Counted from the stretch's first letter, positions 4,510-62,519 are shown. The stretch is 64,000 nucleotides of DNA from Eukaryota sp. TZLM1-RC (GCA_040285825.1 JAUPSS010000004.1:3390550-3454549), one strand, 5' to 3'. Numbers and translations are program-made. Notes: generated by a model not told the origin, from the sequence alone.

Positions 4510-4523
4510 GTTTTTGTTTTTGG

Positions 4524-6074: not shown

Positions 6075-6089
6075 TTTTTGCAGAGTTCT

Positions 6090-7139
6090 GGGGGAAATTC
6101 CTATAAATACATGGTCAATTTTCGTGTGGAATAATTACAAAAACTATCTACTACTGATACGGATACTGAGGCCTTTCATTACCACTCATTCTGGCTTCAG
6201 CAATTGCAAACATATTCAGACAAGCCAGCTAATTTCTATTGAAAAGCTTTGTTGACCCTTTGTTGCTGAGTCTACAACCCTCACTGTTGCAAACTAATAA
6301 ACCATGACATGTAGTAACAGGAGTCTTTTCTCTTCTATAGAATCTAGGATTTGTTACTCTCAAAAACGTAGCAACCTTTTCAAAACAAACAGGACATTTT
6401 GCTGAAGTGAACACTTCATTAATCATCAATACTTCAAATCCATTCCTTTTCAGAAATTGAGTCCATCCAATGCCACGAGTAGGCCTATGATGTTTCAAAT
6501 TCTTGGAACCTTTTTTACCATAATCACCCATTAGAATTAAAGTGTTTCTTGGGTTGCCAAAATTCTGAACAAGGTTTTTTAACAACCAACTTTCAGTCTT
6601 TTGTTTGTGAATAAAAGCTTGCATTTTATGAATGCTCCACAAGTCAAGACTAAAAAAGTCAATTGTCAAAAACACTTGCCGAATTTTGGCAACCACAAAG
6701 TTGGAAAAATCTATAAAAGTTGCTGAATTTGCAGCAAACGCGGACAATTCGGTGTTTGCATCTTCAATTGTCATTTCGTAAGACTCTATCATCTGGTTCC
6801 TGTCGTAATCTACCTCAGTATACTTTGTCGCCCATCGTTTTTGCTTTTCATTCATCCTGCTTTTTGAAGACCAGGACATCTGAGTCATTCTTAACCATTT
6901 GTACTTCTTGTCTTGATTCATCACCCGACTATTTCTTTGCTGTTCGGTTTCATGTTCAGGAACCATGGCTTGTTCTTCATCAGTCTTTTTACTCCCAAAA
7001 TACAATAAATCACGTTTTCCAGGATCACAAACAACAATTCGTTTGTCTTGAAAAGCATCAACATCAACATCATCAATAAATCAGAAATACTAGCCTTGTT
7101 GTCTGGCTTACATTTCTGACCTTGTACATCCTGACGAAA
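6090..7139 (-). mobile_element. Fanzor element copy D (3' fragment: RuvC/zinc-finger part plus 3' hairpin end)
   Basis: VVCDPGKRD, LMGDYG, INEVFTSAKCPVC, HGLLVCNSEGC, FNRN; high DNA similarity to copies A and C. Confidence 0.85.
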
Positions 7140-19388: not shown

Positions 19389-19838
19389 TGAATAAGAGTC
19401 CACAAATAGATAACTGTTGTTGCAAAGTAAAACAAGATTTTTCTGTGGGAAATTCCCATAATAATTACAATCACTATCACACAGATATTGAGGTCTTTCA
19501 TCACCACTCATTCTGGCTTCAGCAATTGCAAGCATGTTCAGACAAGCCAGCTTATTTCTATTGAAAAGCTTTGTTGAGCCTTTGTTACTGAGTTTGCAAC
19601 TCTCACTGCTGCAAGCTAATAAACCATGACATGTAGTAACAGGAGTCTTTTCTCTTCTATAGAATCTGGGATTTGTTACTCTCAAAAACGTAGCAACCTT
19701 TTCAAAACAAACAGGACATTTTGCTGAAGTGAACACTTCATTAATCATCAATACTTCAAATCCATTCCTTTTCAGAAATTGAATCCATGCAATGCCACGA
19801 GTAGGTCTATGATGTTTCAAATTCTTGGAACCTTTTTT

Positions 19839-19988
19839 TTTTTTGATTTTTTTTTCTGGAGTGGGTAAGAGACATCCAATAAGCTCTTCAACAGAAGACA
19901 AACCTCGGGCAGCCAAGTAATGAGATAGGCCATTTTCTAATTCATCCAATATCTGAAGACCATATTTGGTGGGTAGAGTACAGAACTG
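19839..19988 (-). pseudogene. Retroposed mRNA fragment (DHODH/DPYD-PreA-like C-terminal part) with poly(A), inserted in the Fanzor ORF
   Basis: QFCTLPTKYGLQILDELENGLSHYLAARGLSSVEELIG followed by an A-tract; interrupts GDYG|KKGSK, which is intact in copies C and D. Confidence 0.7.
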
Positions 19989-20135
19989 CATAATCACCCA
20001 TTAGAATTAAAGTGTCTTTTGAATTGCCAAACTGCCCGAACAAGGCTTTTTAACAATCAACTTTCAGTCTTTTGCTTGTGAATAAAAGCTTGCATTTTAT
20101 GAATGCTCCACAAGTCAAGACTGTAAAAGTCAATT

Positions 20136-23100
20136 TCTCTTAATTGGAAGAACAAAACAATCTTTATTGATTGATGATGTTCAAATTCCTTTCATTAATT
20201 ACGAACAACAAGCGTTCAAGTTTCTTGGATGTTGGTTAGGTAATTTGGATGAAATTTATTCCCAATTGAACAATTTATTGGAAAATTTTGATAAGGATCT
20301 TAGTTTTATTGCTGAATTTTATTTATTGAATTTGCACACTTAATTAAATTAACTCAATACTAATGGGACGAATGTCATTGAACCAAGATTTCCTCTACAA
20401 AATCTTGATTTGCTTGCTGTCTAGCTAAAGCTTCTCTTATTCGATTGAAAAACCGTGGTAATCTATTAATAATGGCAAATTGAATCCGTGAACGCCATAA
20501 AAAAATATCAAATCTTTTCATTGTTTTTTCTTTCACCATTTTTTGGAAGTCATCCAAAAAAGTTTCTGCTTCAACTGATAATCTTCCATTTATCGAAAAT
20601 GGGAAAGCGATAAAAACGAGCTGTGTATTTCAATCGACATTTGCCTCTTCAATGTCTTTATCATATTTTCTATGTTTCTCTCTTGCTTTAAAATCCAGAG
20701 CAGCCACCGGATTAAGTTTTCTTCTGTGAACCAAAGTATCGTTTGCAACATTACATGAGACAAAGTCAACAATAGCTTCAGAATTATCAATCCAATCACA
20801 GTATACATCACCTCTATCATCAGAACCAAAATTATTCAGAGAAAGTGTTTCCTTCAGCAGGGGCTCTTTGATACACGATATCCTTGAAGTTTGTGTCATA
20901 TTGAAAACAGTGTCTCTAACAGCATCATGTAATGAAGAACGATAAGTTATCAATTTAGAGCAATTCAGAGCATGGCGCAAAGTGAGTTGAGGTGAATTCG
21001 AACAAATACATTTTTCTTTTGATAATAATTGATTAATGGGGATATTCAAATATAATCTCATTTTTGTTACAAATGCTTCATTAGTGGCACACAATCCAAA
21101 TCTTCGTGGTACAATAGTTACAAAAAGTGAAGAATCTGACGACTTGTTTTCACAAACACCCATTTCCAATAACAATGAGTGAAGATCTTGATTTAAAACA
21201 GCCGAGCTGCATATATTATTATAAAGATCTTTTTCATACATTCCAGTCAATCTTTTCTGTAATGTTCGAAGAGTGTACTTCAAATTTAAAACATTTTTTT
21301 CTGGAATATTACCATTAAATGATTGGGGAAAACATCGACCCCATTTTTCTACATCAATTCTTGAAATTTCTTCATTTAATGCAAAAACAGTGGAACTTTG
21401 CGTTGTCATCAATAAATCTTCCCAATCTGCAAATCTTTCGGAAAACTCAAAGATTGCATTTCTGCATCCACCAACAAAAGCACACGAGGTAAGAATAGAA
21501 GCCTTCGTCCACCCTAAACCGCCATAATGTGGACTAAGGTAAGCATGATCTGGAATTTGAAACATTTTACATCCCAGTAATTGAGACAGAACTTTTGCAC
21601 GTAACTCATTAAACTTCTGAGCCAAAGGTCTAGTGACGAGAGGATTTGTAGATCGAAATATATGATTAAAATTGGAACTAAAACACAGTCTTATAATGGT
21701 AAATTTGATATGTTTTTTTATATCTAAATTCATCATTCGGTCAATTTTGTCAGAAATTGAGTTCAACTTTTCAAACAATTTTTTGGTAATTTCATCATTA
21801 TTTCCTAAAAACGAACCCAAATGACAAATAGCATCAATTGAATATAATTTGGCTTGAATTTCAATACCATCAACTATTGCGGAAACTGGAGAATTCGATA
21901 ACAAAACACATTTAAGTAAATTAAGTCGGAGACCAATTTTGGTAAATAATTCTTTAAAACATACAGTTGCTTGTTTCACAATATTTAAATCCCCAACAAG
22001 CACAACATCATCCATATATGCAATCATTTTTAGTGAAGGAAACATCTCTTGAATTTGCAGTAAAATAGGATGAATGGCCAAACAAAACAAAAGAGGCCCT
22101 AACGGATCTCCTTGCTTTACACCACTTGATGAACTCAAAATGTTATCACCAAAATGTAAATTAGAATATGTGCAATATGTTGATTGAAAATACGGTATTA
22201 ATTCCGGCATATATTGCAATTGAGCACCATGGATACTGCGACGACTTAGTGAATTGAAAGCATTACTAAAATCCAATGACATACAAACATTGGATTCATT
22301 TTGGCGAAATAAAACATCAGTAGCAAAAATTGCTGAAGAGACTCCGTCTGTAGTATTTATACCATATTGAAAGGGTAATAAAATCTTTTTAGCTTTTTCG
22401 TTGAACCTGCTTAAGCAACACGCAGAAAAAATATTGTGTAAGCTCTCAGAGACTGCAATAGGACGAACATCCATTTTTGAATTTTTGACAAGTGCAGTCA
22501 AACGAGAACTTCTTAATTCTTCTGGGTATTTGAGTTGACCAGATAATATTTGGTTGAAAAATTTGGTCAATAAACCAAGGCAACCTTCTGAAGAAATAAT
22601 CGCGGCTTTTACATGATCAATAGTAATACCAGAAAGTCCGGCAGACTTACCACGTGGTCTCTTTTTGATAACCGAAAAAACTTCTGATGGCATCAATGGA
22701 TAATTTTCCCAGTATGTGCCGTAAAAATTTTGATCCATTATAGGGTCTTCATAAGGATGAAGTATTTTTAGTTTATCTTTTGTATTTTCATTGTTGGGTG
22801 CTTTAACTCCGGGACTTAAAGCTGACAAAGCCTTGGACCATTTGTTGTCAAAGCATTTGTCTTCAAAAATTTAACTTAATTTCTCGGATGACTGATTTCT
22901 CGGTGCTATAATAGTTAAATCTTCGGAAATATTTACGAAATTTTGTTCAAAAGGAGTTGCTGAATTTGATATTGAAAAACACATCAAATTTTTTATTTTA
23001 AAAATTTGTTAATCTGGTAAATTCACTCATATTTTAAGATCAACTCCTCCCTCAGTGTCTCTTGATTTTTGTAGATCTTTCAACAAACTTCGGGTCAAAT

Positions 23101-24397
23101 TTTTTTCCTCATTATTGGAGGTTAATGAATCTTTAATTCGAAGTCATGTTTTTTGTTCTGCTGACTTAGGTGGAATTGGTTTCACGAAATCTTCAATTTT
23201 ATGTAAAGCAGCTTTTTTAGGAGGCGGAAGAAATGTTGTTTTTGAATTTTTTCAAAGGTTTCCTTATGATGTTCATATGATCCATGGTGAATCTAATTTT
23301 TATTTGAATCAACTTCAACTTGAATTAGATAATTTGCCTAGTGATATCTGGATTCAGTGTTTTCCTCAAAATATTCAAGAAATTCCCACCCGATCTCTTC
23401 CAAATTTACGTTTTTGCTTGAAAAAGCTTCAGCACCATCTGGTTAAATTATATGAAGGCTTGGATTATGAAGTAAGACTTGGCTTGGCCAAAACTAAAAA
23501 TCCCGCTTTCGGTAATTTTTTAAAGGATATTCGTGATAGCTCTGCTGCTGCTCAAATTCCCTCAGTTTATGGACTTTTGTTAAAAAACAATGAATGGCTT
23601 TTAAACATGCGTTTTCGTTGTTTTCTGTTTCCAAACAATTTGCCGAATCATTTAACTTGTAAATGTGGTAAGCCTCTTTTGTTTACTCATCTTTTGAACT
23701 GTAAACATTTCATTACATTTAGAAGCAAAGTACATAATAACGTCAGGGACCAAATTTATGTAATGTGCAAATCATATCGAGTAGATTCCTTTTTACAACC
23801 GCTGTTATCAAAATTAATTCTTGATGACCCCAATATTGATAGTACGTGCTACAACAGAGCTTCTATGGGTCTGACAAGAGGTGATCTAGTTGTTCCCGGT
23901 TTAAATGGTAGTTTTACTATTTTAGACGCCATGTCTATTGACCCTTGTAATTCCTCTAACGAACATCTCATTAACTCAGATGTAAATAATCCTCTTCTTG
24001 CAGGCGAAAAATATAAAATTGCTAAATATGCGAAACCCATTTCCTCGATTAATGAAAATTCTCATGCACAATATAATTTATGTCCCTTTGTATTTTCTTT
24101 GCTTGGATCTTTGGGTAAGGCTGCTATGGCTTTCCTTGAAGATTTTGTTGTTGTTGTAAAGGAAAGAACTGGAAGAATTTTCAATCGTGTTTACTGGCAA
24201 AACAGGATTGTATTTTCTGTTTTTAAGGGAATGGTAAAACTGATTTCTGATTCACTGTCTTCTTTTGGGAAATTTTCTGAATCTTTGGCATTTAATTGTT
24301 TTGATGTAGGGGAGGCAGGTTTTGAGGATGTGGAGTTTTAATTGTGTATTTTATGTTTTGATATTCGTTGTTGAATAAATTTTTAAATTAAAAAAAA
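20136..24397 (+). mobile_element. 5'-truncated CRE-like non-LTR retrotransposon (family A), 13-bp TSD GTAAAAGTCAATT
   Basis: TSD at 20123-20135 and 24398-24410; AATAAA and poly(A) at the 3' end; ORF 23055-24341 has CKC..H..C zinc motif, HN, RGD, K..KY, PF (RLE); frame continues across the nested insert. Confidence 0.9.
20320..22956 (-). mobile_element. 5'-truncated CRE-like non-LTR retrotransposon (family C) with RT and RLE, 11-bp TSD TTGCTGAATTT
   Basis: RPIAVSE, LDFSNAFNS, GVKQGDPLGPLLF, YMDD, CIC..H..C, HD, RGD, KHRKY; TSD at 20309-20319 and 22957-22967; premature stop at 20630. Confidence 0.92.
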
Positions 24398-27195
24398 GTA
24401 AAAGTCAATTGTCAAAAAAAACTTGCCGAAGTTTGGCAATCACAAAGTTCGAAAAATCTATAAAAGTTGCTGAATTGGCAGTAAATGCGGACAATTCGGT
24501 ATTTGCATCTTCAGTTGTCATTTCGTTGGACTCTATCAATTGGTTCCAGTCGTAATCCACTTCAGTATACTTTGTCGCCCATCGTTTTTGTTTTTCATTC
24601 ATTCTACTTTTCAAAGACCAGGACATCTGAGTCATTCTCCGACATTTGAATTTCATGTCTTGATTCATCACCTCACTATTTCTTTGCTGTTCAGTTTCAT
24701 GTTCAGTCACCATGGCTAGTTCTTCATCAGTCTTTTTACTCCCAAAAAACAATACATCACGTTTTCCAGGATCACAAACAACAATTCGTTTGTCTTGAAA
24801 GTATCAACATCAACATCATCAATCTATAAATCAGAAATACTAGCCTTGTTGTCTGGCTTACATTTCTGACCTTGTACATCCTGACGAACAAATTCTACTG
24901 CAATATTTAAATCCATCTGTGTGGATAATGTTGTTGAATTTATAGCTCTTCTGTTTGAACATTGGTTGGTTTAAATCCAGAATATCAGACCAAAAGTCAA
25001 ATTGCTGAGGTGGTTTGAATTTCATAATTTGGGGTAATGTATTGGACATTTTCAGCGTCTGTGTAGATGATAAATCATCAATTAATGTTTGTTTAACAAT
25101 TCTCCTTATTGTTCTTGTATCAATGGGAAAATATCCAGGACCTACAGTGGTTGAAACAGGAGAAATATGATAAGGTTTTTTCTCTCTACTGGAGATATAT
25201 TGGGCAATTGCAATTGCTGGTTTTGGGAATATTTGAGGATCTTTTTCATTAGCGTCTGCAAGAAAATGTATATCCACTGGAAATATGTTGTCAACTAAAT
25301 TGTCGTCAGTGACCAAATTCTCAATTTGACAAGTAAATCGCTCAATAAGACCTTCAAATATGTCTCTAAGTTCATTATTTCTTATATCATGTTGTTCACA
25401 TAAAGCGAAATATTCATCATTCAGAAGGTCTGAAATATTTTCAGGATGATGAAACAAAGAACTCAAGCAATCTCTATCACCCGCTAAAAACAAGTTTTTG
25501 AATTGACGAAGCCTAAATCTATATAGTGAAATAATGGTAGATAATGGCGTTGAGTATCCACCCAGCTTGTGCATTTCTGTTAACACATTTTTCACATCTA
25601 CTTTGTCAAAGTAAACATTAATAAATCGATTAATTTGTTTTTCATAATTTAGTTTCAAATTATTCTCGAAATTGGAAAACATTACTGGGGCTATGTACTC
25701 AGGTGGTCTACTGAAGCCATCAGTTGGAGATTGTGGAAAAAACTCAGTCCTATATCTCAAATGGTCTACAGAACTCAATGTTTTGTTCAACTTTTGTTGT
25801 TCAAAGGTGGTCGATAATCTATAATCTCCTTCACCATAAACAAAGTTTTCAAAATCCTGTGGAAATGCACTCTTTGGTTTCACCATTTCTTGCCCATAAT
25901 ATTCAGCTGAAATATAACGAATTCTGGCCATTAATGATTCATATAATTGAACAGATGTTCGTGGTGGTATAAAATTACGTTCAAAACAAGACTGTAAATA
26001 CAGCTTTAAGCAACAAGTGGTGTGAATACGCAATTGTTGAAATTTTAAAGCAGTTTTTCTCAATTTGAGTATCACATCTGAATGTTTAACCATTGAGTTG
26101 ACGGTTGCTCGAATGGTTTTATAAGACGATAAAACAAATTTGTCTTTCTGAAACAGCACGAACAGTTTCAAACAAATGATAAAATCATGATGCCGATATT
26201 GAATCGAATTTTGTCTCAGAGTAGAAGTAGCTAAACAATCAATTGGCAAAATATGGGAAAATTCCTGATGAAGTTTGATTTTCGTTTCATTTATCATTTT
26301 ATATGCCAGATTGCCTAATCCATTTCCGTAGGGTATTTTAATAAATTTCTCGGCTAAAACCTAAGTATCTAAAAGAAAAAAGCCATTTTCCCTGATGAAA
26401 ACTTCTCTCCATCTCGGTGAAAGTTGATTGAGTACATCAATTGTTGAATCATTTCGAACAGTGGGAAATGGTAAATCAAAATAATTTAATCTATTTTTCG
26501 AAACCTGTAAATCAAACTGCATTAAATTGTGATTGAGAAAACAATGGGGTTGATGATCACCAATAAGGTTTAAGAACCTACGAAGCAAGGTTTTTTCGTC
26601 AGAGAAAATTTCTGCCTGAATATCAATATCAATGTCTGGTAATCTGACTTGAGGATTCATTCTCAATATAAGTGAATATTTACTCTCCAAAAAGAAATTA
26701 TGGCGATCAAACTTACCAATAACAATCGAAATTAAAAACACTTTTTGATCTGAAATCCACTCACCCATTTGCTCATCAGTTTTCTTTTTCAAAAGATTTA
26801 CACCCTCTTTTTCTCTTTTTGTTGATAATCTCGTCAGGAGGGAGAAATTGGCCATCATGATTTTGGTAAAGATAACCGCTCTGATATGTTTCAAGATCAA
26901 AGCACATAACAGTGGGAAAATTTTGATTTGGGGTCATTGATTTAGTTGAAATCAATGAATCAGGCTTGGAGCCACTAAGACTTGGCCCAATTTTTCTGAC
27001 CATACACGGATTCAATGGTTTTTTTGTCAAAATCTTCCTGTTCTCGATATTCAACATTGTATTCTCAATACAAATTTCTCGGTTCAGTGCTGTTTGTTGT
27101 TTTTTTAGCTTACGCTTTGATGTTTGTTGGTCAAAAATCGCGTTTCTAATAATTTTTGGTGGAGGAATTGATTTGAAATTAGATCTTCTCTTTCT

Positions 27196-27255
27196 GGGAC
27201 CAGGATTTGCTTCAACATCTCCATCCATTGTTTAATCAACAGTAAATGGGTTTGT
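27196..27255 (-). other. 2A-like (StopGo) ribosomal-skipping peptide in the Fanzor polyprotein
   Basis: NPFTVD(L)TMDGDVEANPG|P matches D-(V/I)-E-x-N-P-G-P; the Leu codon is TAA in copy A but TTA in copy B. Confidence 0.8.
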
Positions 27256-28221
27256 TGATAGAAGATGTTGGCAGCTACTGGATTGAAAAGATAAATTAGT
27301 GACATAATAATCAAACTCAACATTATCAAAATAACAATTTAAGACACAACATTCCATATCTAAAGTGCAACAATCTGAACCGCAAAAATGAACAAACTCA
27401 TAAACATCAAAACAACAATGTAAAACAAAACACAAAGAAGAACATCCCATATCTAAGGTGATTAGCACCATGTCTGATTCAACAGCACCCATATCATGAC
27501 TCAAATGATGACTGAAAAAAGTGTAATACTCTACCCCCACGGAAGGATAAGAACGACGATTCCGATAGGAAATCGAGGCTCTGACCTTCCGTTTATTCCT
27601 TCAAAGCAGGATTACTGTTCCCGACTGAGGAGTTCGGGAGGAAGTACTCTGCTGTTCTGTGAAGAACAGGTTGAAGGAGGAGGTGGGAACCGGGTCCGTA
27701 ACCTCGTTATCCTTTTTCTTGTTCCGCTGCATGATGTTAGAAGAATGGGAAGAGTCGAGATAATCTCGCTGTCTGACACGATGTCTGACATGCTGATTGC
27801 AATTTCAAATTGATTGCTAATTTCCACAATGGTATCAAATGCCTATCCACTGTATCTCTATTAGTGGTCATCAACATCAGCTCGGTTTACCCTCTAGCTG
27901 TTCTGGTCGTTGTTACTCCGACTAAACTCTATGTTTTTTTCCAGTTTCCTTCTTCCTTTACCTCTTGTCTTCTTCCCATTCAGCTATCTCAACAATTCTC
28001 CCTTCCTCTCTCCCTCTCTGTTTCGACGGGACCTAAACAATTGCTTGATTCCCTACTTTCTACTCTGTCCACATTTTCTAACTCAATACAGTCTTCTTCG
28101 TCAGTTCAACTCCACCCTCACCTCTCCTCATGTCCTTCAGTTCAGTTCATAAACAAATTTGGAACCTGGACTGAAATGAACTAAAAGTCTGTTGTTCTCC
28201 TTGATGAGTTGTGTATGCATC

Positions 28222-39989: not shown

Positions 39990-40329
39990 TGAGATCGATG
40001 AAGATAAGAATACAAGATTTGAAAGGAGTTTGGGAATTTGAGTTTTGATCTGAAAATTGTCTTGCCAAGATTAATTGTTGTTTGTTAATGGTGATTGTTG
40101 GCTTTCAGGGTTCTTCAACTTGGTTGATGTAATGGACCATCTCATTAGGACAATTTCGTGTGCTGGAATGCAGGAAACGCATATTATGCTTTTGCAGTAA
40201 TTGTATCACTGTTCCAGTTAATAGATATCGTGACACATGGTAGCATATGTAAGTAGTTTTAGTTTCAAATCTATTGTCTTCTTTTAGATGATAAAACACT
40301 TTCTTGTACAATGTGCATTTCATGTTTTG

Positions 40330-50194: not shown

Positions 50195-52033
50195 CTAAAC
50201 ATTCCACATTGTTATATTAGAATCATCACCAACAGAAACCAACTTAGAACCACTTGGACTAAAAGAAACATCCCGAACACATCCAGAATGTCCTAAAGAA
50301 GACACAAGTTTATCAAAACTTCTTGTATCAAATAGACTCAGTTGCCAATCAGAGCTTCCGACTGCCAGGTAATTATTAGAAGGATTCAAGTCAACGCAGG
50401 TCAACTGAGGAACGTCATCAAAGGTCAAAACATGGACAGGGTCTTTCATAGTCAGATCGTAATGAGTAAGTGTACCATCTGATGACGTCACGAATAACGA
50501 TTTTTGATCCTTTGCCAACACAGCACTGGTTAACGGACCAGAAGCCTTCCATGACGACATCTTTGTAGATGTGGAGAGGTTCACCACATGGACATAAGAA
50601 TCTTTAGAAACTGTAACTGCATATTGATCCGAATTAAAAAGACAAACATCAGAGACAGATTGGCGATGTGTTTTTACTTCCTCTAACAATGACTGCTTCC
50701 GGACGTCAAATAAACGAAGACAGTCACTGGCAGTGGCAAAGTAGCGGTGGTTTTTGAATAATTTGATAGAGTTGACAGCATATCGCCCCGTGCTGACCAT
50801 CCATAAACAATCTCCACTCTCTTCAGCATCAAAACAACGAACTATACCATCCTCATGGCCAACAAAGCCAAGGACAGAACCTACGTCCATGGAAAGAGAG
50901 GCACCTGGAGAAGGACGAATAGTGGATGAGGATAGACAATCAAAATTCACGGATGACCATCTTCGGAAGGTATCATCATCAGACAACGTGTGGAAAAAAT
51001 CATCATTTTTATAAACAACACAACTAACAGGACCTCTGTGGTTCTGATATTCTTTATTCATAGCATGCTTAATAATACCATTTGGTTGGGGTTGGGAAAG
51101 AGAAATATCATAAATAGAACCTGAACCAGTACCTATCAACAACCGATTGTTATTACAGCTCATATCAACAATAGGGGAAGTCAACCTGCATTCCATGGTT
51201 TTAATCACGTTTGATCGTTGACTTTGATTGACTTCCATCCCGATTATTGACCCGCTGCTTCCCCCAGCGTAGAACCCTGCCGAATAAGGAAGAAGGGTGT
51301 GAATATGGCCATTAGAGACAGGCACGACTGTGAACAGAGAGAATGATTGGAAAGTAACAGAAAAGAGACACACGTCACCACTAGTGGTACCAGCAAATAA
51401 TAATGAGCGGTCAAAAGAAAACTCAAGTCCAGAGGTGAATTGTCGTTGATAAGTTCCTAATTGAGGTTTGATTGATTGGGTAACGTCACCTGACTGAGGG
51501 TCGAAAACAACGAGTAATAACCCGGACTCTGAACTTACCACAAACTGAAACAAATCAGTCTCCCGTCCTTTAATGTTCCGTTGTCTTCCTCCCCAAGCCA
51601 CAGCTTTCACTCCAGACACTTCTAAATGGGCGGAGGTGACATAATTACCAGTGAGTGTGTCCCAAATGAAGAAGTAGCCGTCGGGGATAGACATATGGCC
51701 ACCTAGTGAAACCAGGAAACGACCTTCAGACGAAAAAGTGAGGGCTGAGACAAGGGAATCGTGCTCTGATAGTCTGTATTTGAGACTCTTTTGTGCAAGA
51801 TCCCAAACACAGATATCAGCATTATAGCCATCACAAGCTGTAGCAGCAAGTTTTCCATCAGGAGAAGATGCAAAAGCGGTGATGTCACGATCGTGGCCTC
51901 TGAAGAAGTGCTGTTCCGTTGATGACAGATCAGTGTAGATTAAGGTTCCACCAGATATATGGCATGTTTGATTGTCAGTTAAAGATAAAGAGTGGGGTTT
52001 GGCACTGTAGCCGATGGTGTGGACAATACTCAT
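50195..52033 (-). CDS. WD40-repeat protein, CFAP52/WDR16-like
   Basis: HTIGYS start, QHFFRGHD, ADICVWD, AGTTSGD, GHSGCVRDVSFSPSGSKLVSVGDDSNITMW; ATG at 52033. Confidence 0.8.
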   Translation of the reverse strand: MSIVHTIGYSAKPHSLSLTDNQTCHISGGTLIYTDLSSTEQHFFRGHDRDITAFASSPDGKLAATACDGYNADICVWDLAQKSLKYRLSEHDSLVSALTFSSEGRFLVSLGGHMSIPDGYFFIWDTLTGNYVTSAHLEVSGVKAVAWGGRQRNIKGRETDLFQFVVSSESGLLLVVFDPQSGDVTQSIKPQLGTYQRQFTSGLEFSFDRSLLFAGTTSGDVCLFSVTFQSFSLFTVVPVSNGHIHTLLPYSAGFYAGGSSGSIIGMEVNQSQRSNVIKTMECRLTSPIVDMSCNNNRLLIGTGSGSIYDISLSQPQPNGIIKHAMNKEYQNHRGPVSCVVYKNDDFFHTLSDDDTFRRWSSVNFDCLSSSTIRPSPGASLSMDVGSVLGFVGHEDGIVRCFDAEESGDCLWMVSTGRYAVNSIKLFKNHRYFATASDCLRLFDVRKQSLLEEVKTHRQSVSDVCLFNSDQYAVTVSKDSYVHVVNLSTSTKMSSWKASGPLTSAVLAKDQKSLFVTSSDGTLTHYDLTMKDPVHVLTFDDVPQLTCVDLNPSNNYLAVGSSDWQLSLFDTRSFDKLVSSLGHSGCVRDVSFSPSGSKLVSVGDDSNITMWNV

Positions 52034-52077
52034 GATTTGAATAAACAAATCTAATTCTTCTAAAACATGCTAATTTA

Positions 52078-54471
52078 GTGGGAAATCCCCATAAGTACAC
52101 GATCAATTTTCGTGTGGAATAATTACAAAAACTATCTACTACACAGATACTGAGGCCTTTTATTACCACTCATCCTCGCTTCAGCAATTGCAAGCATATT
52201 CAGACAAGCCAGCTTATTTCTATTGAAAAGCTTTGTTGACCCTTTGTTGCTGAGTCTACAACCCTCACTATTGCAAGCTAATCAACCATAACATGTAGTA
52301 ACAGGAGTCTTTTCTCTTCTATAGAATCTGGGATTTGCTACTCTCAAAAACGTAGCAACCTTTTCAAAACCAACAGGACATTTTGCTGAAGTGAATGCTT
52401 CATTAATCATCAATACTTCAAATCCATTCCTTTTCAGAAATTGAATCCATCCAATGCCACTAGTAGGCCTCTGATGTTTTAAATTCTTGGAGCCTTTTTT
52501 ACCATAATCACCCATTAGTATTAAAGTGTTTCTTGGGTTGCCAAAATTCTGAACAAGGCTTTTTAACAACCAACTTTCAGTCTTTTGCTTGTGAATAAAA
52601 GCTTGCATTTTATGAATGCTCCACAAGTCAAGACTGTAAAAGTCAATTGTCAAAAAAACTTGCCGAAGTTTGCCAACCACAAAGTTGGAAAAATCTATAG
52701 AAGTTGCTGAATTGGCGGCAAATGCTGATAATTCGGTGTTTGCATCTTCGATTGTCATTTCGTAAGACTCTATCATCTGGTTTTTGTCGTAATCTACCTC
52801 AGTATACTTTGTCGCCCATCGTTTTTGCTTTTCATTCATCCTACTTTTCAAAGACCAGGACATCAGAGTCATTCTTCACCATTTGTACTTCTTGTCTTGA
52901 TTCATCACCCGACTATTTCTTTGCTGTTCGGTTTCATGTTCAGGCACCATGGCTTGTTCTTGATCAGTCTTTTTACTCCCAAAACAATAAATCATGTTTT
53001 CCAGGATCACAAACAACAGGGAGGACATTTATTGGAGTGAAGAAAAATTGAGAAGTTGAATAACTATTTTTTTTTGTTATAGGATAAATTTATTTTCAAC
53101 GCTAACAAAACATTAAACAAAAAACTAGAACTCAATATCCTCAATACACGCATCAACATCATCAAATCTTTTAAGCGCGCGATTTTCATACTCTATTCCT
53201 AATTGTAACAGTGCTTTGGTCAACATTTCTGGAATTGCTTTACAACAATTCGTTTGTCTTGAAAAGCATCAACATCAACATCATCAATATATAAATCAGA
53301 AATACTAGCCTTGTTGTCTGGCTTACATTTCTGACCTTGTAAATCCTGACGAACAAATTCTACTGCAATATTAAATCCATCTGTGTGCATAATGTTGTTG
53401 AATTTATAGCTCTTCTGTTTGAACATTGGTTGGTCTAAATCTAGAATATTGGACCAAAAGTCAAATTGCTGAGGTGGTTTGAATTTCGTAATTTGGGGTA
53501 ATGTATTGGACATTTTCAGCGTCTGTGTAGATGATAAATCATCAATTATTGTTTGTCTAATAATTGTCCATATTGTTCTTGTATCAATGGGAAATTATCC
53601 AGGACCTACAGTGGTTGGAACAGGAGAAATATGATAAGGTTTTTTCTCTCTATCAGAGATATATTGGGCAATTGTAATTGCTGCTTTTAGGAATATTTGA
53701 GGATCTTTTTCAACAGCGTCTGCAAGAAACTCTATATCCACTGGAAACATGATGTAAACTAAATTCTCGCCAGTAACCAAACTCTCAATTTGACAAATAA
53801 TTGGTTCAATAAGACCTTCAAATATGTCTCTAAGTTCATTATTTCTTATATCATATTGTTCACATAAATCGAAAAATTCATCATTCAGAAGGTCTGCAAT
53901 ATTTTCAGGACGATGAAACAAAGAACTCAAGCAATCTCTATCATCAACTAAAGACAAGTTTTTTGAATTGACGAAGCCTAAATCTATATAGTGAAATAAT
54001 TGTAGATAATGGCGTTGAGTATTCACCCAGCTTGTGCATTTCTGCTAACACATCTGGTTTGTCAAAATAAACATTGATAAATCGATCAATATGTTTTTAA
54101 CAATTCAATTTCAAATTATTCTCAAAATTGGCAAACTTTACTGGTGCCATATACTCAGGTGGTCTGCTGAAGCCATCAGTTGGAAATCGTGGAAACTGTT
54201 CAAGCTTGTGTTTTAAGTGATCAAGTCAACTCAATGTTTTGTTTAACTTTTGTTGCTCAAGGGTAGTTCTTAAAGTATGATCTCCCTCACCACAAACACA
54301 GTTTTCAAAATCCTGTGGAAATGCACTTCTTGGTTTCACCATTTTCCCCCCATCATACTCAGCTGAAATATAACGAATTTTGGCCATTAATGATTCATAT
54401 ATGTGGGCAGATATTTGTGTTGGTATACAATTACGTTGAAAACGAGACTGTAAATACAGCTTTAAGCAACA
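52078..54471 (-). mobile_element. Fanzor element copy C (3' half with the best-preserved 3' hairpins)
   Basis: ORF remnants 52282-52872, 53220-53513, 53595-54026, 54226-54516 are collinear with copy A; interrupted at 53019-53241. Confidence 0.85.
53019..53241 (-). mobile_element. Short CRE-like 3' end (family D-like) inserted in Fanzor copy C
   Basis: KAIPEMLTKALLQLGIEYENRALKRFDDVDACIEDIEF* then AATAAA and A-tract; ACAACA on both sides. Confidence 0.75.
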
Positions 54472-54990
54472 TGTACTACATCGACTCGAACTCGACTTGA
54501 ACAACTCCAACTCCACTCGTACTCGAGATCAAAAATTCTAACTCGACTCGAACTCGAAATCAAAAGTTTCATGTTGAAAACGGCAATTAGCAAAACGAAA
54601 TGGTATAAAAATCAGTATTTAGGCAAACATAACAACTTTTATTGATGCAATTAAAACATCACAGATCCTCCCAACACTAGAAGTCTATTCTTCGTTCTTC
54701 TTCCATGATTATAAACACACAACTGCCTCAATCATCTCATCAGACAACAAATTTTGTTTGTCAGTAATCATATTACCCGCAAGTGAAAAAAGACTTTCAG
54801 ATGCGACAGATGATGCTTGGATTAATAAATAGTCCCGAGCCATTCGAGCTTATCTTGGAAAGCGAACCTTGGTGACGTTCCACCATTGTAGAATGTTTGT
54901 TGAAATGGGTACAAGTTCTTCTCTTTCGTAAGCCATTATTTCAGTGACCATTGGTTGAGCAAGATTTTGTTCTTGTCCCCTTTGTGTTTT
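54472..54990 (-). mobile_element. hAT transposon remnant (C-terminal dimerisation domain plus ACTCGA subterminal repeats)
   Basis: Manual translation: ILQWWNVTKVRFPR*ARMARDYLLIQASSVASESLFSLAGNMITDKQNLLSDEMIEAVVCL*SW. Confidence 0.85.
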
Positions 54991-55712
54991 CTATGGCCTT
55001 GTTCTTTACCAAATGATTTAATTTGTCGCTGCAAGAGTGTGGTTACGTTTCTTCATATTTTTAACTGTAAGTATTTTATATCGCTCAATTGTTCATGACT
55101 CAGTTTGTGATCAATTATATGCCATGTGCAAAAGTTTCAATATAGAGGCATTTATTGAGCCATTGGTACGTGAGCTGTCTTCAGATCAAACTGATGATTT
55201 CTTTAATAAAAGAAGGGCAGATTTAGTAGCTCCAGGGATCGATGGTGTTCTCAATGTTGTAGATGTTCTCTCAGTTGATGTTTGCAAAAATTCTACTGCT
55301 CGTTTAGTGTATTCCGCTGATTCGCCGTTATCTAACGCCGAAAAAAAGAAGATAAAAAAATATGAAGAACCTTTGGCACAGTTAGGTAGAGTGGAACATG
55401 TGAAATATCAGTTTGTGCCGTTTGCAATTTCTCTTTTTGGCAATATTGGACCTTCAGGGTTGCACTTTTTTGAAGATTTTAAAAAAGTGTTACTGAATAG
55501 GTCTGGTAAAACAATGAATTCCACTTTCTGGTTAAATAGAATTGTTTTTTGCATATTCAAGACTATTCCAACAATGATTTCAAAGGCACTTCTAGCTATT
55601 GGTATAGAATATGAACGTAATGCTGTAAGTAGGTTTAGTAATAGTGACGCTTGTTTGGAGGATATTGAATTCTAGATAGATTTTTTTTCTCAATAAATAT
55701 TCCAGTTAAAAA
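54991..55712 (+). mobile_element. CRE-like retrotransposon 3' fragment (family D)
   Basis: RSIVHD, IEP, RRADL, VVDV, KIKKY, FVPFA, ending EDIEF then AATAAA. Confidence 0.85.
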
Positions 55713-55714
55713 CA

Positions 55715-58699
55715 ATTAATATGTTTTTTCATAATTTAGTTTCAAATTATTCTCAAAATTGGTAAATATTACTGGGGCCATATACTCAGCTAGTCTACTG
55801 AATCCATCAGTTGGAATTCGTGGAAAAAACTCAGGCCTATATCTCAAATGGTCTACATAACTCAATGTTTTGTTCAACTTTTGTTGTTCAAAGGTAGTCG
55901 ATAATCAATAATCTCCTTAACCATAAACAAAGTCTTCAAAATCCTGTGAAAATGTACTTTTTGGTTTCACCATTTTTTGCCCAAAATACTCAGCTAAAAT
56001 ATAACGAATTCTGGCCATTAATGATTCATATAATTGAGCAAATATTCGTTGTGGTATAAAACTACGTAAAAAACAAGACTGTAAATACAGCTTCAAGCAA
56101 AAAGTGGTGTGAATACGTAATTGTTGAAATTTTGAAGCAGTTTCTCTCAATTTCAGTATCACATTTGAATGTTTAACCATTGAGTTGACGGTGGCTCGAA
56201 TGGTTTTATAAGATGATAAAATAAATTTGTCTTTCTGACACAACACGAAAAGTTTCAGACAAAGGATACAATCATGAAGCCCGTATTGAATCGAATTTTG
56301 TATCAGAGAAGAAGTAGCTAAACAATCAATTGGCAAAATGTGGGAAAAATCCTGATGAAGTTTGATTTTCTTTTCATTTATTATTTTATTTTCCAGATTG
56401 CCTAATCCATTTCCGTAGGATATTTCAATAAGTTTTTGGGTAAAACCAAAGTATCTAAAAGAAAAAAGCCATTTTCCCTGATGACAATTTTTCTCCATCT
56501 CGGTGAAAGTTGATTGAGTACATCAATTGCTGCATCATCTCGAACAGTGGGAAATGGTAAATCAAAATTATTTAATCTATTTTTTAAAACCTGTAAATCA
56601 AACTACATCAAATTATGATTAAAAAACAATGGAGTTGATGAATACCAACAATATTTAAGAACCTACGAAGCAAGGTTTTTTGTCAGAAAATATTTCTGCC
56701 TGAACATCCATATCAATGTCAGGTAATCTGCTAACTTGAGGACTCATTCTCAACATAAGTGAATATTTACTCTCCAAAAAGAAATTATGGCGGTCGAACT
56801 TTCAAATAACAATCGAAATTAAAAATACTTTTTGATCTGAATCCACTCATCCATTTGCACCCTCTTTTTTCTTTTTGTTGATAATCTCGTCAGGAGAAAG
56901 AAATTGGACATCATGATTTTTGTAACAATGACCATCCTGATAGGTTTCAAGATCAAGCACATAACAATGGGAAGATCTTGATTTGGGGTCATTGATTTCA
57001 ACATAATCAATGGATTAGGCTTGAAGCCACTAATACTTGGCTCAATTTTTCTGACCATACTCGGTTTCAATGGTTTTTTTGTCAAAATCTTCCTGTTCTC
57101 GATATTCAACATTGTATTTTCAATTCAAGTTTCTCGGTTCAGTGCTTTTTGTTGTTTTTTCCGCTTACGCTTTGATGTTTGTTGGTCCAAAATCGCTTTT
57201 CTAATATTTTGATGGAGGAGTTGATTAAAAATTGGCACTGCTCTTTCTGGGACCTGGATTTGCTTTAACATTCTCATCCATTGTTAAATCGACACTAAAT
57301 GGGTTTGTTGATACAATATTTTGGCAGCTTCTGGATTGAGAACATAGACTATAAACATAATAATCAGACTCAACACTATTAAAATAACATTTTAAGACAC
57401 AACATCCCATATCTAAAGTGCTAGTATCTAAACCACAAAAATCAACAAAATCAAAGACATCAAAATAACAATTCAAAACATAGATGGAAAATACAAATAC
57501 TTGTATTCTTCCGCATTTTGTATTTGTATTTGTATTAATAATAATACAAACCGGCTATTTGTATTTTTCTTCTTATGGGTCATTCTTCGTCTACGGTCCT
57601 GAATCCTTCTCGTCTTTCTAAATTTCGACGTAACAATGTTCAGTCCCACAATCCTCTCTGGAACATGTGCTTTATCAAAAACAAACAAAACTCTATTAAC
57701 ATGCATATTTTATGTGGCGGATGTGGTCAGGCATTTCCCAAAGCTAATGCAACTCGGAAAGAAGCACAATGTTGGAGCAACTGAAAAATCTGGTATTTCA
57801 GGTGTAGAATAATTTGTTTTGTTATTGAATGGTGTTTGTTAGAATACGGGTGCTATTGACTCGGAGTATCAGTCAATTAAATAAAAATACATAAAATGGT
57901 GACGTGTTCTGTCTCTGTATTTGGTGTATTTGTATTTGTATTAATACAAGGGCAAGGTGGTGTATTACCCATCTATGACTCAAAACAAAACACAAAGAAG
58001 AACATCCCATATCCCAGGATGATTATCACTATGGCTAATTCAATAGCACCCATATCATGACCCACATGAAGACTGAAAAAAGTGTAATACTCTACCCCCA
58101 CGGAAGGATCAGAACGACGATTCCGATAAAAAATCGAGACACTGACCTTCCGTTTATTCCTGTAAAGCAGGATTACTGTTCCTGACTGAGGAGTTCGGGA
58201 GGAAGTACTCTGCTGTTCTATGAAGAACAGGTGGAAGGAGGAGGTGGGAACCCTTGCCCGTAACCTCGTTATCCTTTTTCTCGTTTCGCTGCATGATGTT
58301 AGAAGAATGGGAAGAGTCGAGATAATCTCGCTGTCTAACACGATGTCTGACATGCTGGTTGCAATTTCAAATTGATTGCTAATTTCTACAATGGTATCAA
58401 ATGCCTATCCACTGTATCTCTATTAGTGGTCATCAACATCAGCTCGATTTATCCTCTAGCTGTTCTGGTCGTTGTTACTCCATCTTAACTCTATGTTTTC
58501 TTCCAGTTTCCTTCTCCTTCCTTTACCCCTTGTCCTCTTCCCATTCAGCAATCTCAACAATTCTCCTTAGTCTCTCCCTCTCTGTTTCGACGGGACCTAA
58601 ACAATAGCTTGATTCCTTACTGTCTACTCTGTCCACAATTCTAACTCAATACAGTCTTCTTCATGAGTTCAACTCCACCCTCACCTCTTCTTTTGTCCT
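55715..58699 (-). mobile_element. Fanzor element copy B (5' part: leader, degenerate 2A, DEDDy exonuclease, start of Fanzor)
   Basis: Collinear with 25630-28136; DLTMDENVKANPGP, DLETYQ, YGLHD. Confidence 0.85.
57479..57977. mobile_element. hAT-type MITE (16-bp imperfect TIR, 8-bp TSD)
   Basis: CATAGATGGAAAATAC ... GTATTACCCATCTATG; TSD ATTCAAAA (57471-57478) / ACTCAAAA (57978-57985); TATTTG subterminal repeats; absent at the equivalent site of copy A. Confidence 0.88.
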
Positions 58700-58839
58700 G
58701 GTGGAAGTAGAATTGTGGTGTTATCAAAACCTGAGAATTTCACGACCGATTTCATTCAAATTCACGACCAATGAATTTGAGAACATGGATGTCATTCATT
58801 GTTAATTGAGAATTAATTCCATTTTCATTTTTTTTATTT

Positions 58840-59400
58840 TTAACATGGCAATAAACACAAGAATCTATTGTATTAAGGAGCCTTTGCTTAGAGAAACACT
58901 GTCATTGAAAAATTTTGATGCTGATGATAGAGGTGATATTTACTGTGATTGGACTGATCAAATTGTTAAGATTTGGTCTTTTAAACATGGTGGTGAACAA
59001 AAACATGCTTCCCAATCTCCTCTCTCAACAACAGCAATGTTGGAAGCTTAAAATGATAGAAACATGGTCGAATAATAACACTCTATATAAAATCACAAAG
59101 CCCTTCTACAACGTCTCAATGGAGCAAGATGTAGAAACAACAAACCTGCCCCAATTGTTATTTCGATTGTTGGTACCTTTGGAACTGAAGGTCTCAATTT
59201 TTTAGATGATTTAGGAAATCTTCTCAAAGAAAGTGGTCGCACATTCGATTTTAATTTGGAAGAACAGAATTGTTTTTCGTTATTGAAAGCTCTTCCTCGT
59301 TATATTAACTCCATTTTGATTAATATTACGGAGTTTTATAACAAGCAAGTTGCTATGCAAGTGCATAGCGAAAATCTTCCGTCATTTAATTGATGGGGTT
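58840..59400 (+). mobile_element. Degenerate CRE-like fragment
   Basis: CIKEPLLRETLSLKNFDADDRGDIYCDW, close to family C; degenerate RLE C-terminus follows. Confidence 0.7.
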
Positions 59401-59480
59401 TGAGTAGGTAAAAGCATTAGTTAAGGTTTTTGGTTGAGGTTTAAAATGTTTCTGCTTTTGAAATAAATCTTTTTAATTCA

Positions 59481-60165
59481 ATGTGTATTTGTAACAAAAA
59501 ACCTACTGCCAATTTCCGTCATATTGTGAGTTGTAAGAAATTTCTCCAATATAGGTCAGTTCTTCATAATGCCGTTCGTGATGTGACATATGAGATGTTC
59601 AAGTGTTACAATTTTAGTTGCAAAGTAGAACCTTTGTTGAAGCATTATAGCGATGATAATCTATTTAATTCACGTCGAGGTGATTTAATTGCTCCTTTTG
59701 TGGATTCCTCCCAAGTTGTTGTAGATTTCACTACAGTTGATCCCTTTGCTTTTGTTTATCGCGATGATGTTTTACTTAGTACTAATGGTCATTTAAACAA
59801 GGCTGAAGATCGTAAGAGAGATAAATATACTGAGATATTAAATGATTTAAATTTCAATAAGAATCTTTACTCGAAGTTTTCGTTTGTTTATTTTGCCTTT
59901 TCGATTTTTGGCAACATTGAACAATCCGCCTTGAATTTCATCAATGATTTTGGTAATTTATGTCGTTCAAGTGGTAAGAATTTTGCAGAGAATTTATGGA
60001 AGAATCGTATCATTTTCGCTTTGTACAGAAGTGTTCCCAAGTACTTGAGTTTAATGATATCCAAACTTTATAAGGATTCATCAAGAGATGGCGTGGAGAA
60101 TTTAGTTTCTTATGTGTTTTAGTTTGTTTTGTTTTTATTTGATTCTTCGTAATAAATAAACATTT
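59481..60165 (+). mobile_element. CRE-like retrotransposon 3' fragment (family E)
   Basis: CICN..HIVSC..HN, VEP, RRGDL, VDFT, KRDKY, then AATAAA. Confidence 0.85.
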
Positions 60166-60739
60166 TTGAAATTTTTAATTCAATATTTAATTTAATTTTT
60201 AATTTTTGTTTCAATATCTTCTCTACAATTACAGCAGCTTATCGTTTCTTTCATTTTTAAATTTTTAATACAAGAAGAATACCAGGGAGAATGAAATAAG
60301 TATTGATGATTTTTGCGTGGATTTACCGAAGATTGTCAAATTGTTACGTCCCATTACTAGTCCATTTTTGTTTGAGTTATTTTCTTGAAGGATTGCCACC
60401 CCAAATCTGGACCAAACGTTTCCGTCAATCAATGCAGGAGATTTCAGGACATTTCTTTTTTTAATTCAATCATTTTAATTTGCGGTTTTGTGTATATCAA
60501 CTCTAGCAAAAATTGTGGAAAATTTTCGAAAGCTCAGATATTAATGTTAGACTTGACTTGTCTGGGAAAAAGTGAAGCTTTTGTAGTTCTTTTACATGAT
60601 ATGTGTAAATTTTTGGCACTTTGGTAACTGATACAGCATGAGTTTTGAATATGAAACTTAGTTCCATTATTTGATCTGTTGATCTCTTCCAATGTCATAC
60701 ATAAATATAGTCGTAAAATCACAATTTCTCATTGGTTGA

Positions 60740-61150
60740 ATTGTTAACATTTTATTACTTTTAGAAGCAAGGTTCATGATGCTGTAAGAGACCAATTATA
60801 TTTTTTGCTCAAGTCTCATAGAATTGAATCCTTTTTGAAACCTTTTGTCCAATTTGTTTGAAGTTGAAGATGTTTTTCATAAAAATAATAGAGGTGATGT
60901 TATTTTGGTTGGATTAGTTATAACCTTTGTGGTAGTGATGATGATGTCTGTTGATCTCTGCGTAAAGTCTGTAATGATAGATTAGCTAATTCTCAAAATT
61001 GTAATCCACTTTCCATTGTTGAAAATTGTAAATTCAAACAATATAACGAACATATATCCAAGTTGTCTGCCTGACTGCATGCAAAATACAGTTTGTATCC
61101 TTTTGTGTTTTTTCTACTTGCTTCAATTGTTCCCACTGTCCTACATTTCA
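60740..61150 (+). mobile_element. Degenerate CRE-like fragment (family B)
   Basis: HFITFRSKVHDAVRDQLY..IESFL..NNRGDV, with frameshifts. Confidence 0.75.
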
Positions 61151-61280
61151 TGCGACATTTCAGCTGTTGATAAGTCAATGAATTAATATATTCATTGAAA
61201 ACAATATCAGCTCATCCTGTTGGTTCAATGTTCCATCTTCTTCCATAGGGAGTCCTCTCAATCGGTGTCGATCAAAAACA

Positions 61281-61352
61281 TGGGACCACGAGGAATCGAA
61301 CCACGATCTTGCAGCTCTGGAGGCTGATGCCCTACCATTGGACCATGATCCC
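61281..61352 (-). tRNA. trnW: tRNA-Trp (CCA)
   Basis: 72-nt cloverleaf GGGATCA-TG-GTCC-AATGGTA-GGGC-A-TCAGC-CTCCAGA-GCTGC-AAGAT-CGTGG-TTCGATT-CCTCG-TGGTCCC-A; TTTTT terminator 2 nt downstream; mismatches at 27:43 and 51:63. Confidence 0.85.
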
Positions 61353-61510
61353 ATTTGGGTTGCGATGTAGGTCCACATTAGAGACAATCAGCAATCGGTT
61401 GTTTTTATAGTTACTGAACTTCTACACTTAACAATATAAAATCATATCTAATGGGAGAAAATTCATTGAACAAAGATTTCCTCTACAAAAACTTGATCTA
61501 CCTGCTGTCT

Positions 61511-62385
61511 TTTTTTTGTATTTTTAATTTTATTAAAAACCTATAAATCAACATCTAAATATTCCATCTCTCCCAAAACAAAAACAGTAGATGCAAATCT
61601 CTCATAGTGAGATCCAAGAGAAAGCATAGCATCAGAAACCATCTTCAACATCCCCTTAAAAATAGAAAACACAATTCTATTTTGCCAAAACAATCTGTTG
61701 AAATTTCTGTGAGTTCTTCTCTTTACAATCATTTTGAAATCTTCCAAAAAACGTATAGCCGTTGAAGCAAGTGAACCAAAAAAATACAAATGGATGCAAA
61801 TTGTATTTTGCATGCTGTTGACTGGCCAATTTGTACAAAGGTTCATGGTATTTTTTGATTTTGAAATTTTCCGAATTTGAAAGAGGATTATGAATTTCAG
61901 AATTAACAAGCCTTTCATTTGAGGCATTACAAGGATCAACAGACATTACATCCAATAAAATGAAGCTTCAATCTAATCCAGGTAATATTACATCACCTCT
62001 ATTATTCTTACGAAAATCATCTTCAGTATCAAACAGATTTGACAACAGAGGTTCCAAAAAGGATTCAATTCTATGAGACTTACACATACAAAATAATTGG
62101 TCTCTTACAGCATCGTGATCCTTGCTTCTAAAAATAAGAAAATGTTTACAATTTAACAAATGAGTAATTGTAATTTTTCGAGAACATTTACAAATTAAAT
62201 TATGAGGTAAATTATCAGACCAGATAAAGGACCGAAATCTCATATTCAAAGTCCAAGCAGAATCAGTTAAGAGAGTACCATAAACTTGAGGAATTGTTGT
62301 TACTAAGGCAGAAAAAGTTCTATCACACATATCTTGTAAAAGATTTGCAAAAGCGGGATTCTTTTTCTTGGCCAAGCCAAGTCTT
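61511..62385 (-). mobile_element. CRE-like retrotransposon 3' fragment (family B) with poly(A)
   Basis: High similarity to 30790-31445; ends DVDL then A-tract. Confidence 0.85.
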
Positions 62386-62519
62386 CATCAAACTCCAAGC
62401 TTCCAAAATTTTTTGACAATTTTTGTTGAAAAGTTTTTTTACAGCAAAACTGCAAATTAAAAAAAGATCGGTTTGGAATTTCTTGAATTGAGTGGGGAAA
62501 ACATTTTGTCCAAATTTGT

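Follow-up and report, generated by a model that had tools for sequence, protein, structure and literature searches.

The tail that follows a broken Fanzor1 reading frame at 52078..52136 forms the decayed 3' terminus of a repeated and likely mobile element, and it probably encoded the scaffold of a guide (omega) RNA while that element was active. It lies on the minus strand of a 64,000-nucleotide stretch from Eukaryota sp. TZLM1-RC (GCA_040285825.1, JAUPSS010000004.1:3390550-3454549), hereafter the window. Taken alone, the tail is nothing unusual, a decayed member of an RNA class already known, but the protein of its element is out of the ordinary. It is a predicted natural fusion of Fanzor1 with an exonuclease of the proofreading type; the fusion persists in subfamilies that share no more than 22-36% identity, and the intact relatives in them retain the catalytic motifs.

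Copies of the element in the window

Self-comparison of the window revealed four loci of the element. A and B are the two halves of one element, which had been missed by an earlier reading made from the DNA alone (the sequence-only reading). "C" as a single element was rejected, as it comprises two different copies, C1 and C2, overlapping over 390 nt at 82% identity. The following features were assigned:

6083..7138, minus strand: copy D, a 5'-truncated Fanzor1 relic with tail, AGAACTC continuing to 6083
19445..20135, minus strand: copy A, the 3' half of element A+B, with tail
20123..24410, strand not assigned: 4.26-kb insert of retroelement relics between A and B, with a 13-bp duplication at 20123-20135 and 24398-24410
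24398..28136, minus strand: copy B, the 5' part of element A+B; its 5' end may reach ~28700
24398..26123, minus strand: Fanzor1 WED/REC/RuvC-I part of copy B
26180..26904, minus strand: PolB-type DEDD exonuclease domain of copy B (DLET, NxxxFD, YxxxD), in frame with Fanzor but for one frameshift and one TAG
27196..27222, minus strand: 2A-like core GDVEANPGP of copy B
52132..54474, minus strand: copy C1, a broken Fanzor1 coding part (TDG, DPG, E-zinc finger, and NRN motifs; stops, a frameshift, and a retroelement insert at ~53019-53241)
55709..58699, minus strand: copy C2, a 5' part of its own with leader, degenerate 2A (~57260), exonuclease, and Fanzor N-terminus

Reading copy B in six frames yielded a leader followed by GDVEANPGP and DLET...NHNLMQFD...YRHHD, with YKTIRAT (the Fanzor start), TDG, and DPG further on in the same frame; the 3' copies supply NEVFTSAKC, the zinc finger, and NRN. 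The order in the single ORF of the element is a 2A-like peptide, a PolB-type DEDD exonuclease, and Fanzor1. Every copy in the window is broken by stops, frameshifts, or inserts. The element is multi-copy, and no firm target duplication was found; a 10-bp candidate around A+B (28702-28711 versus the 3' flank, P 0.039) is only a lead. Pfam searches of open frames of the 5' blocks detected no transposase in nine of them, and the tenth belonged to a neighbouring hAT relic. This relic (54475-55100, minus strand; Dimer_Tnp_hAT, E 1.6e-11) carries repeated TCGAG-rich subterminal words, cuts copy C1 short, and probably inserted later, rather than being the element's own transposase.

Other insertions and rearrangements were observed. 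Relics of non-LTR retroelements (RVT_1) occur at 20317-24341, 30747-31679, 35195-35963, 53019-53241, 55124-55675, and 58837-63292, several of them in or beside Fanzor elements, and a tRNA gene lies among such relics (61281-61352, minus strand). A 157-nt piece of the retroelement insert in C was matched without difference by a contig of run X2 at depth 40. The leader of copy C2 contains a 500-bp insert (57481-57981) with short inverted ends and repeated TGTATT words, possibly a miniature transposon. Both leaders upstream of 2A (27300-27460 and 57359-57480) contain short tandem repeats with an 81-nt spacing; those of the relatives are also repetitive and are unrelated between subfamilies. Copy A harbors a 150-nt open-frame foreign insert ending in an A-run (19839-19988, minus strand), like a retro-copied mRNA end; it had no Pfam match and may resemble the C-termini of dihydropyrimidine dehydrogenases. 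Deletions in the same copy removed the Fanzor stop, leaving a frame that stays open from the Fanzor C-terminus across the tail and into a DHHC palmitoyltransferase gene (19011-19991, minus strand). The NCBI model P9112_007367 (Eukaryota sp. TZLM1-RC) represents this Fanzor-DHHC chimera and is identical to the window ORF over the first 322 of 326 residues, a match that assigns the window to the skoliomonads. Elsewhere in the window, two inverted histone clusters (H2A, H2B, H3, H4; 2008-4570 and 36754-40223) share 92-97% identity, and an extra H4 is present.

A Fanzor1 protein joined to a PolB-type exonuclease

The intact relative P0002 was used to identify the Fanzor part. Its best sequence match in the PDB was SpuFz1 (E 1.4e-21; 2.8e-80 by profile), and the next solved relatives, by sequence as well as fold, were PpFz1 and GtFz1. 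An AF2 model of P0002 built from 140 sequences (mean pLDDT 68.7, Fanzor part mostly >80) displayed the enlarged-REC Fanzor1 fold and superimposed on SpuFz1 with a target TM of 0.81-0.82. In a Foldseek search with this relative, Fz1 structures occupied ranks 1-7 (E 4e-29 to 1e-19), and Fz2 appeared at rank 49.

The motifs of the family were found in the window copies. The RuvC-I DPG reads CDPGK in copies B, C1, and D, and the WED TDG reads HTDGF in B and C1, both motifs being present also in intact relatives. The rearranged RuvC-II glutamate precedes the zinc finger by six residues (C reads NEAFTSAKC, A and D read NEVFTSAKC, and P0002 reads DETLTSKRC). At RuvC-III, asparagine replaces aspartate in all three window copies and in most relatives, and the P0020 group has D; among the rows listed for the relatives, this residue was D in 100, N in 14, and unreadable in 36. 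Because GtFz1 is active with N and SpuFz1 D606N cuts better, as described in the available text of Xu 2024 (PMC11423790), N at this position does not imply a dead enzyme, and an interpretation as a dead nuclease was rejected. Judged by its sequence and by the modeled fold of its intact relative, the window element is a member of the Fanzor1 family, a predicted RNA-guided DNA cutter.

Searching with the C-terminal piece led to a 1194-aa protein of TZLM3-RCL with 48% identity, which belongs to a cluster of 14 members; 5 of the 10 members examined (P0007, P0009, P0016, P0018, and the representative) span from 2A to the C-terminus. This sister species has unbroken ORFs of 1.1-1.8 k aa. TZLM3-RCL is a Skoliomonas sp., and skoliomonads are free-living metamonads, according to the accessible portion of the genome preprint (Williams et al.). 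Exonuclease and Fanzor occurred together in 37 of the 201 proteins collected, which form 8 groups when clustered at 60% identity. Named proteins of TZLM3-RCL or TZLM1-RC occur in seven of these, and the eighth is P0043. A library of 1.84 billion sequences gave 1235 matches, and 9 of the best 150 carry the exonuclease. The alignment of copy B with P0002 runs through the exonuclease-Fanzor junction (31% over 622 aa), which rules out a gene-model artefact as the source of the fusion; in P0056, from the same species as the window, W stands where copy B has its TAG. In some TZLM3-RCL subfamilies (P0201, P0197, P0033), one or two Ulp1/C48 protease domains are inserted between 2A and the exonuclease.

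No intact protein from TZLM1-RC was found, the longest being a 732-aa fragment. Scans of viral contigs and protein-based scans of metagenome contigs returned no relatives with DNA context, and a metagenome scan with a 17-nt tail pattern gave 50 loci, all unrelated by blastn/tblastn. In a quick version of a tree, which had long branches, 9 of 11 family rows grouped at 100 and the P0020 pair fell apart, a topology compatible with one origin or with more; these family rows include P0031, P0032, P0034, P0035, and P0037, which were grouped without a look-up of their source.

The exonuclease domain scored above the cut-off for Pfam PF03104. All three motifs, ExoI DxE, ExoII NxxxF/YD, and ExoIII YxxxD, are present in copies B and C2 (C2 with a stop in ExoII) and in P0028, P0201, P0183, P0179, P0020, and P0056. 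The acidic motifs persist in most groups. The P0002 family lacks the tyrosine of ExoIII and keeps its aspartate, and P0197 has no ExoI motif. The exonuclease part of the P0002 model is of low confidence (pLDDT 40-60), and ESM Atlas gave PolB-exonuclease matches at lead level only (0.81). A 2A core, D(V/I)ExNPGP or its variant D(V/I)HxNPGP, was recognized in 22 of the 201 proteins, and all 22 also carry the exonuclease.

DEDD enzymes include RNases. Even with the tail correctly read as a scaffold, the exonuclease might trim the 3' end of the omega-RNA during guide maturation or be unrelated cargo. The one or two Ulp1 domains carried by some relatives are such further cargo, and DEDDh nucleases accompany P and piggyBac transposons as accessory proteins, the nearest precedent found for the fusion (Bao and Jurka 2013, PMC3627910). 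We regard this explanation as unlikely. The closest solved relatives of the domain are the exonucleases of DNA polymerase delta, herpesvirus polymerase, and Pol II (profile matches, E 5e-14 to 4e-10, Pol delta best), and the exonuclease abuts the start of the Fanzor WED domain in 8/8 groups, whereas Ulp1 is optional. The chances that it trims DNA ends at the cut, given activity, are about evenly balanced.

Full-text literature searches retrieved no report of an exonuclease-Fanzor1 fusion, although Repbase and most supplementary tables could already list such elements. The word "exonuclease" is absent from the main texts of Kojima 2026, Xu 2024, Jiang 2023 (preprint and paper), Bao and Jurka 2013, and Yoon 2023, as is "Fanzor" from the skoliomonad genome preprint (Williams et al.). 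Metamonads would be new hosts of Fanzors, and a DNA-nuclease element a new setting for 2A peptides; the searches turned up neither in print.

The 3' tail and the end of the element

Fanzor1 omega-RNAs derive from the 3' end of the element and extend 14-15 nt into the flank, as reported in the part of Saito 2023 available to us (PMC10432273), and since they are encoded there, a scaffold would be expected exactly at the window tail. The available parts of the literature describe the RNAs of Spu and Pp as 71-90 nt long (71-89 nt in Saito 2023, PMC10432273), Fz1 omega-RNAs as having a 7-bp first stem and a remainder that is little constrained (Xu 2024, PMC11423790), and Fz1 reRNAs as three-stemmed, with the target duplication absorbed (Yoon 2023). 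A reading in which known Fz1 RNAs start at the RPxYL codons was dropped.

The minus-strand sequence quoted by the sequence-only reading was found at 52078-52131, directly after the stop TAG of copy C1 (52134-52132). The distance from the stop to CCCAC is 54 nt, to which 2-9 nt are to be added, for a tail of ~60 nt in total:

52078..52136, minus strand: 3' tail of copy C1, a predicted relic omega-RNA scaffold with three stems
52118..52136, minus strand: candidate SL1, a weak 7-bp stem-loop over the last codon and the stop, two G-U pairs, -1.3 kcal/mol
52097..52115, minus strand: 6-bp hairpin ACACGA/TCGTGT, perfect in C, two pairs broken in D, deleted in A
52079..52091, minus strand: terminal 5-bp palindrome including TGGG/CCCA, inner pair A-U in A and G-U in C, two pairs broken in D

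Both hairpins described for copy C are indeed perfect stems (52115-52097 and 52091-52079). In copy A, the palindrome TATGGGAATTTCCCAC is present at 19460-19445 and the first hairpin is absent, as had been noted. The palindrome was also said to recur in copy D, which reads TATAGGAATTTCCCCC with 2/5 pairs broken; with the 2/6 broken in the other hairpin, four stem pairs are lost in the tail of D. The weak 7-bp stem over the stop codon (52136-52118) had been overlooked and is present in C and D and re-registered in A.

The tail had been called conserved, but it is kept no better than the pseudogenised ORF (C versus D: 52/57 nt in the tail, 833/878 nt in the ORF). Nor did the hairpins exceed chance: all seven folds had z values between +0.19 and -1.72 versus shuffles, and 3.4% of 3000 shuffles contained the two-hairpin pattern. 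One shuffle in 3000 produced three disjoint stems like those of C, by criteria set after the stems had been seen. Covariation was found in 0/18 pairs, comparing only three decayed copies; none changes on both sides, one changes on one side, and five are broken in some copy. Absent covariation is one of the two outcomes that the sequence-only reading had named as counting against it. RNAalifold gave an unfavourable covariation term (+0.56) and retained only the terminal stem, candidate SL1 and the 6-bp hairpin not being recovered. An Rfam search gave no match at the tail, and comparison by eye with the Spu, Pp, and Gt scaffolds revealed no evident sequence likeness beyond a few letters.

The nonsignificant folding, the missing covariation, and the equal drift of tail and ORF would fit hairpins that came about by chance in an AT-rich 3' untranslated end, the guide RNA having been lost or never used and the tail common by descent only. 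This is very unlikely in our view. Drift is expected in dead copies and is no test of the ancestral state; every characterised Fanzor1 uses a 3'-end RNA in the portions of the cited literature available; and the catalytic motifs are kept in intact relatives across the divergent subfamilies. The hairpins of the window copies are drifting, and the copies are dead in cis. Of the proposal that this is an omega-RNA scaffold at the element end, what stands is the 3' end of a Fanzor1-family element at the expected scaffold site, with fitting size and three-stem layout; conservation, covariation, and the guides do not. By analogy with known Fanzor1 RNAs in position, size, and stem layout, we consider the tail of C1 likely to be a relic scaffold.

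The copies had been described as diverging right after CCCAC. Instead, D and one contig of run X1 both go on with AGAACTC (chance 1.6-5.5e-4 per pair), and A goes on with AGAA. Contigs of runs X1 and X2 were aligned on copy C for this comparison, which is an independent test of the boundary because copy C itself lacks those letters. The X1 contig tracks C to 52078, continues with AGAACTC as in D, and then departs from D. Past CCCAC, positions 3-4 read AA in all four ends (C, A, D, and the X1 contig). One loose end of X2 shows a shortened palindrome and a different flank, and one of X1 stops short of the palindrome. The 3' ends are ragged: among the six listed (three from the window, three from contigs), three continue CAGAA, two have the palindrome with other flanks, and one stops before it. 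By these alignments, the true end, or the end plus a target duplication, is 2-9 nt past the boundary proposed earlier and is eroded in several copies. The main contig of the runs is none of A, B, and D (its alleles match D at 21/40, A at 18/23, and B at 13/17), and contigs of X1 and X2 did not cover the host gene beside copy C; no contig of runs X3 or X4 aligned.

The boundary being 2-9 nt too short, the three proposed guides, whose letters match the window, are out of register by this amount; according to the available text of Yoon 2023, the target duplication also becomes part of Fanzor1 scaffolds. The suggestion that the end lies ~18 nt beyond, made because A and C share TGTTTTA, was rejected because A and C agree at only 4/10 intervening bases, compared with 91-95% inside the element; D and the X1 contig lack TGTTTTA. 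This word is present in 2/4 flanks (chance 0.1-0.2% per pair; 40 occurrences in the window) and is at most a weak hint of a target preference.

The terminal palindrome could also serve chiefly as a signal in the DNA that marks the end for a trans-acting rolling-circle (Helitron/HUH-type) transposase, with any omega-RNA role secondary or located elsewhere. A subterminal hairpin a few bases from the end would suit such a signal, as would 5'-truncated copies that retain their 3' ends and the finding of no terminal inverted repeat for the element in the window, where its 5' end is not fixed. Moreover, Helitron2 elements that carry Fanzor1 are known, and they have hairpins at the 3' end and occur as one-ended copies (Bao and Jurka 2013, PMC3627910; Jiang 2023). 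The stem is short (4-5 bp), though, no asymmetric inverted repeat to the 5' region rose above shuffles, no Rep/helicase was found near the copies, and the truncations are accounted for by retroelement and hAT insertions. We judge it quite unlikely as the main role, and an end signal would in any case be compatible with an omega-RNA role.

Each of the three surviving 3' ends (6074-6090, 19388-19445, 52033-52078) is followed on the same strand by a host start codon, at a distance of 15, 56, and 44 nt, respectively, and the tails may thus be transcribed. The downstream genes encode a hydrolase, a DHHC protein, and a WD40 protein; three cases in a compact genome are not significant. With this position and all three stems retained, the tail of copy C could still be expressed as a "ghost" guide RNA and used in trans by an intact protein elsewhere in the genome; ghost guide loci are known for SpuFz1, as described in the accessible part of Saito 2023 (PMC10432273). 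Such use is very unlikely, given that no intact TZLM1-RC protein was found beside fragments of up to 732 aa and that the tail drifts like the ORF. It is likewise very unlikely that the tail of copy C has any present-day function.

Proposed mechanism and comparison with known systems

With slightly better than even confidence, we propose an active exonuclease-Fanzor1 fusion that would be moved by a transposase acting in trans. Ribosome skipping at 2A would free the enzyme from the variable, poorly conserved, repeat-rich leader. An RNA of ~75-85 nt would start near the stop codon and run ~15 nt past the end of the element; this length, tail plus ~15 nt of flank, is like that of the Spu and Pp RNAs. 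The RNA would steer the enzyme to the empty allele, where RuvC would make the cut. Trimming of the broken ends by the fused 3'-5' exonuclease would then prevent simple re-ligation. Repair of the trimmed ends by copying the element back would amount to restorative homing, which requires excision or an empty site. According to Kojima 2026, in the part available, OMEGA nucleases probably put the element back at sites from which it was excised, and the 3'-5' exonuclease of T4 polymerase is reported to affect intron homing efficiency (PMC2988022, likewise in part). A bolder and much less probable scheme is a skoliomonad radiation with the order 2A - [Ulp1] - PolB exonuclease - Fanzor1 that spreads without a transposase: the guided cut and 3' trimming would drive recombination-based copying into new sites, and the tail would be a minimal ~60-nt scaffold.

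If it acts as proposed, the fusion would reveal how a eukaryotic OMEGA system directs repair at the break that it makes, which the restorative-homing model leaves open, and would be a natural counterpart of engineered exonuclease-Cas fusions. The unbroken multi-copy ORFs in the cultured sister species make the guide boundary, the TAM, and both activities testable.

Compared with SpuFz1 and PpFz1 (PMC10432273 and PMC11423790, in the parts available; PDB 8gkh and 9cf0), the modeled relative shares the Fanzor1 fold and motifs (TM 0.81), and the window tail offers a short stop-to-end distance of similar size with a candidate 7-bp first stem. The skoliomonad element differs in adding an N-terminal 2A-like peptide, a PolB-type exonuclease, and, in some relatives, Ulp1; no 30-nt terminal inverted repeats were found in it; its candidate scaffold is AT-rich and weak, without evident sequence likeness; and its triad is D-E-N rather than D-E-D. 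GtFz1 of Guillardia theta (PDB 9cer) has the same D-E-N triad, shown to be active there, and a scaffold overlapping the ORF end, but the Gt scaffold, of ~140 nt, forms four stems, and GtFz1 is not reported as an exonuclease fusion. Fanzor1-bearing Helitron2 elements (CRe-1/2/3; PMC3627910) resemble the window element in their transposase-less Fanzor1 copies, 3' hairpin, and variable 5' extent, whereas asymmetric inverted repeats, a 5' hairpin, a firm target duplication, and RepHel were not found in the window, where the 5' end is not fixed.

Like the 2A (StopGo) peptides of viruses and non-LTR retrotransposons (PMC12338488, in the part available; PMC3708506), the skoliomonad 2A-like peptide has the class A core GDVExNPGP close to the beginning of a mobile-element ORF; in retrotransposons, the 2A goes with an endonuclease/reverse transcriptase, whereas the 2A predicted from skoliomonad sequences precedes exonuclease-Fanzor. 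Finally, T4 td intron homing (PMC2988022) and TREX2-Cas9 fusions (PMC13370227), as covered by the parts of these sources at hand, also bring a 3'-5' exonuclease to the ends made by a site-specific nuclease. In those systems, the exonuclease is a separate phage protein or part of a man-made fusion, whereas in the skoliomonad element it would serve a comparable role as part of a native one.
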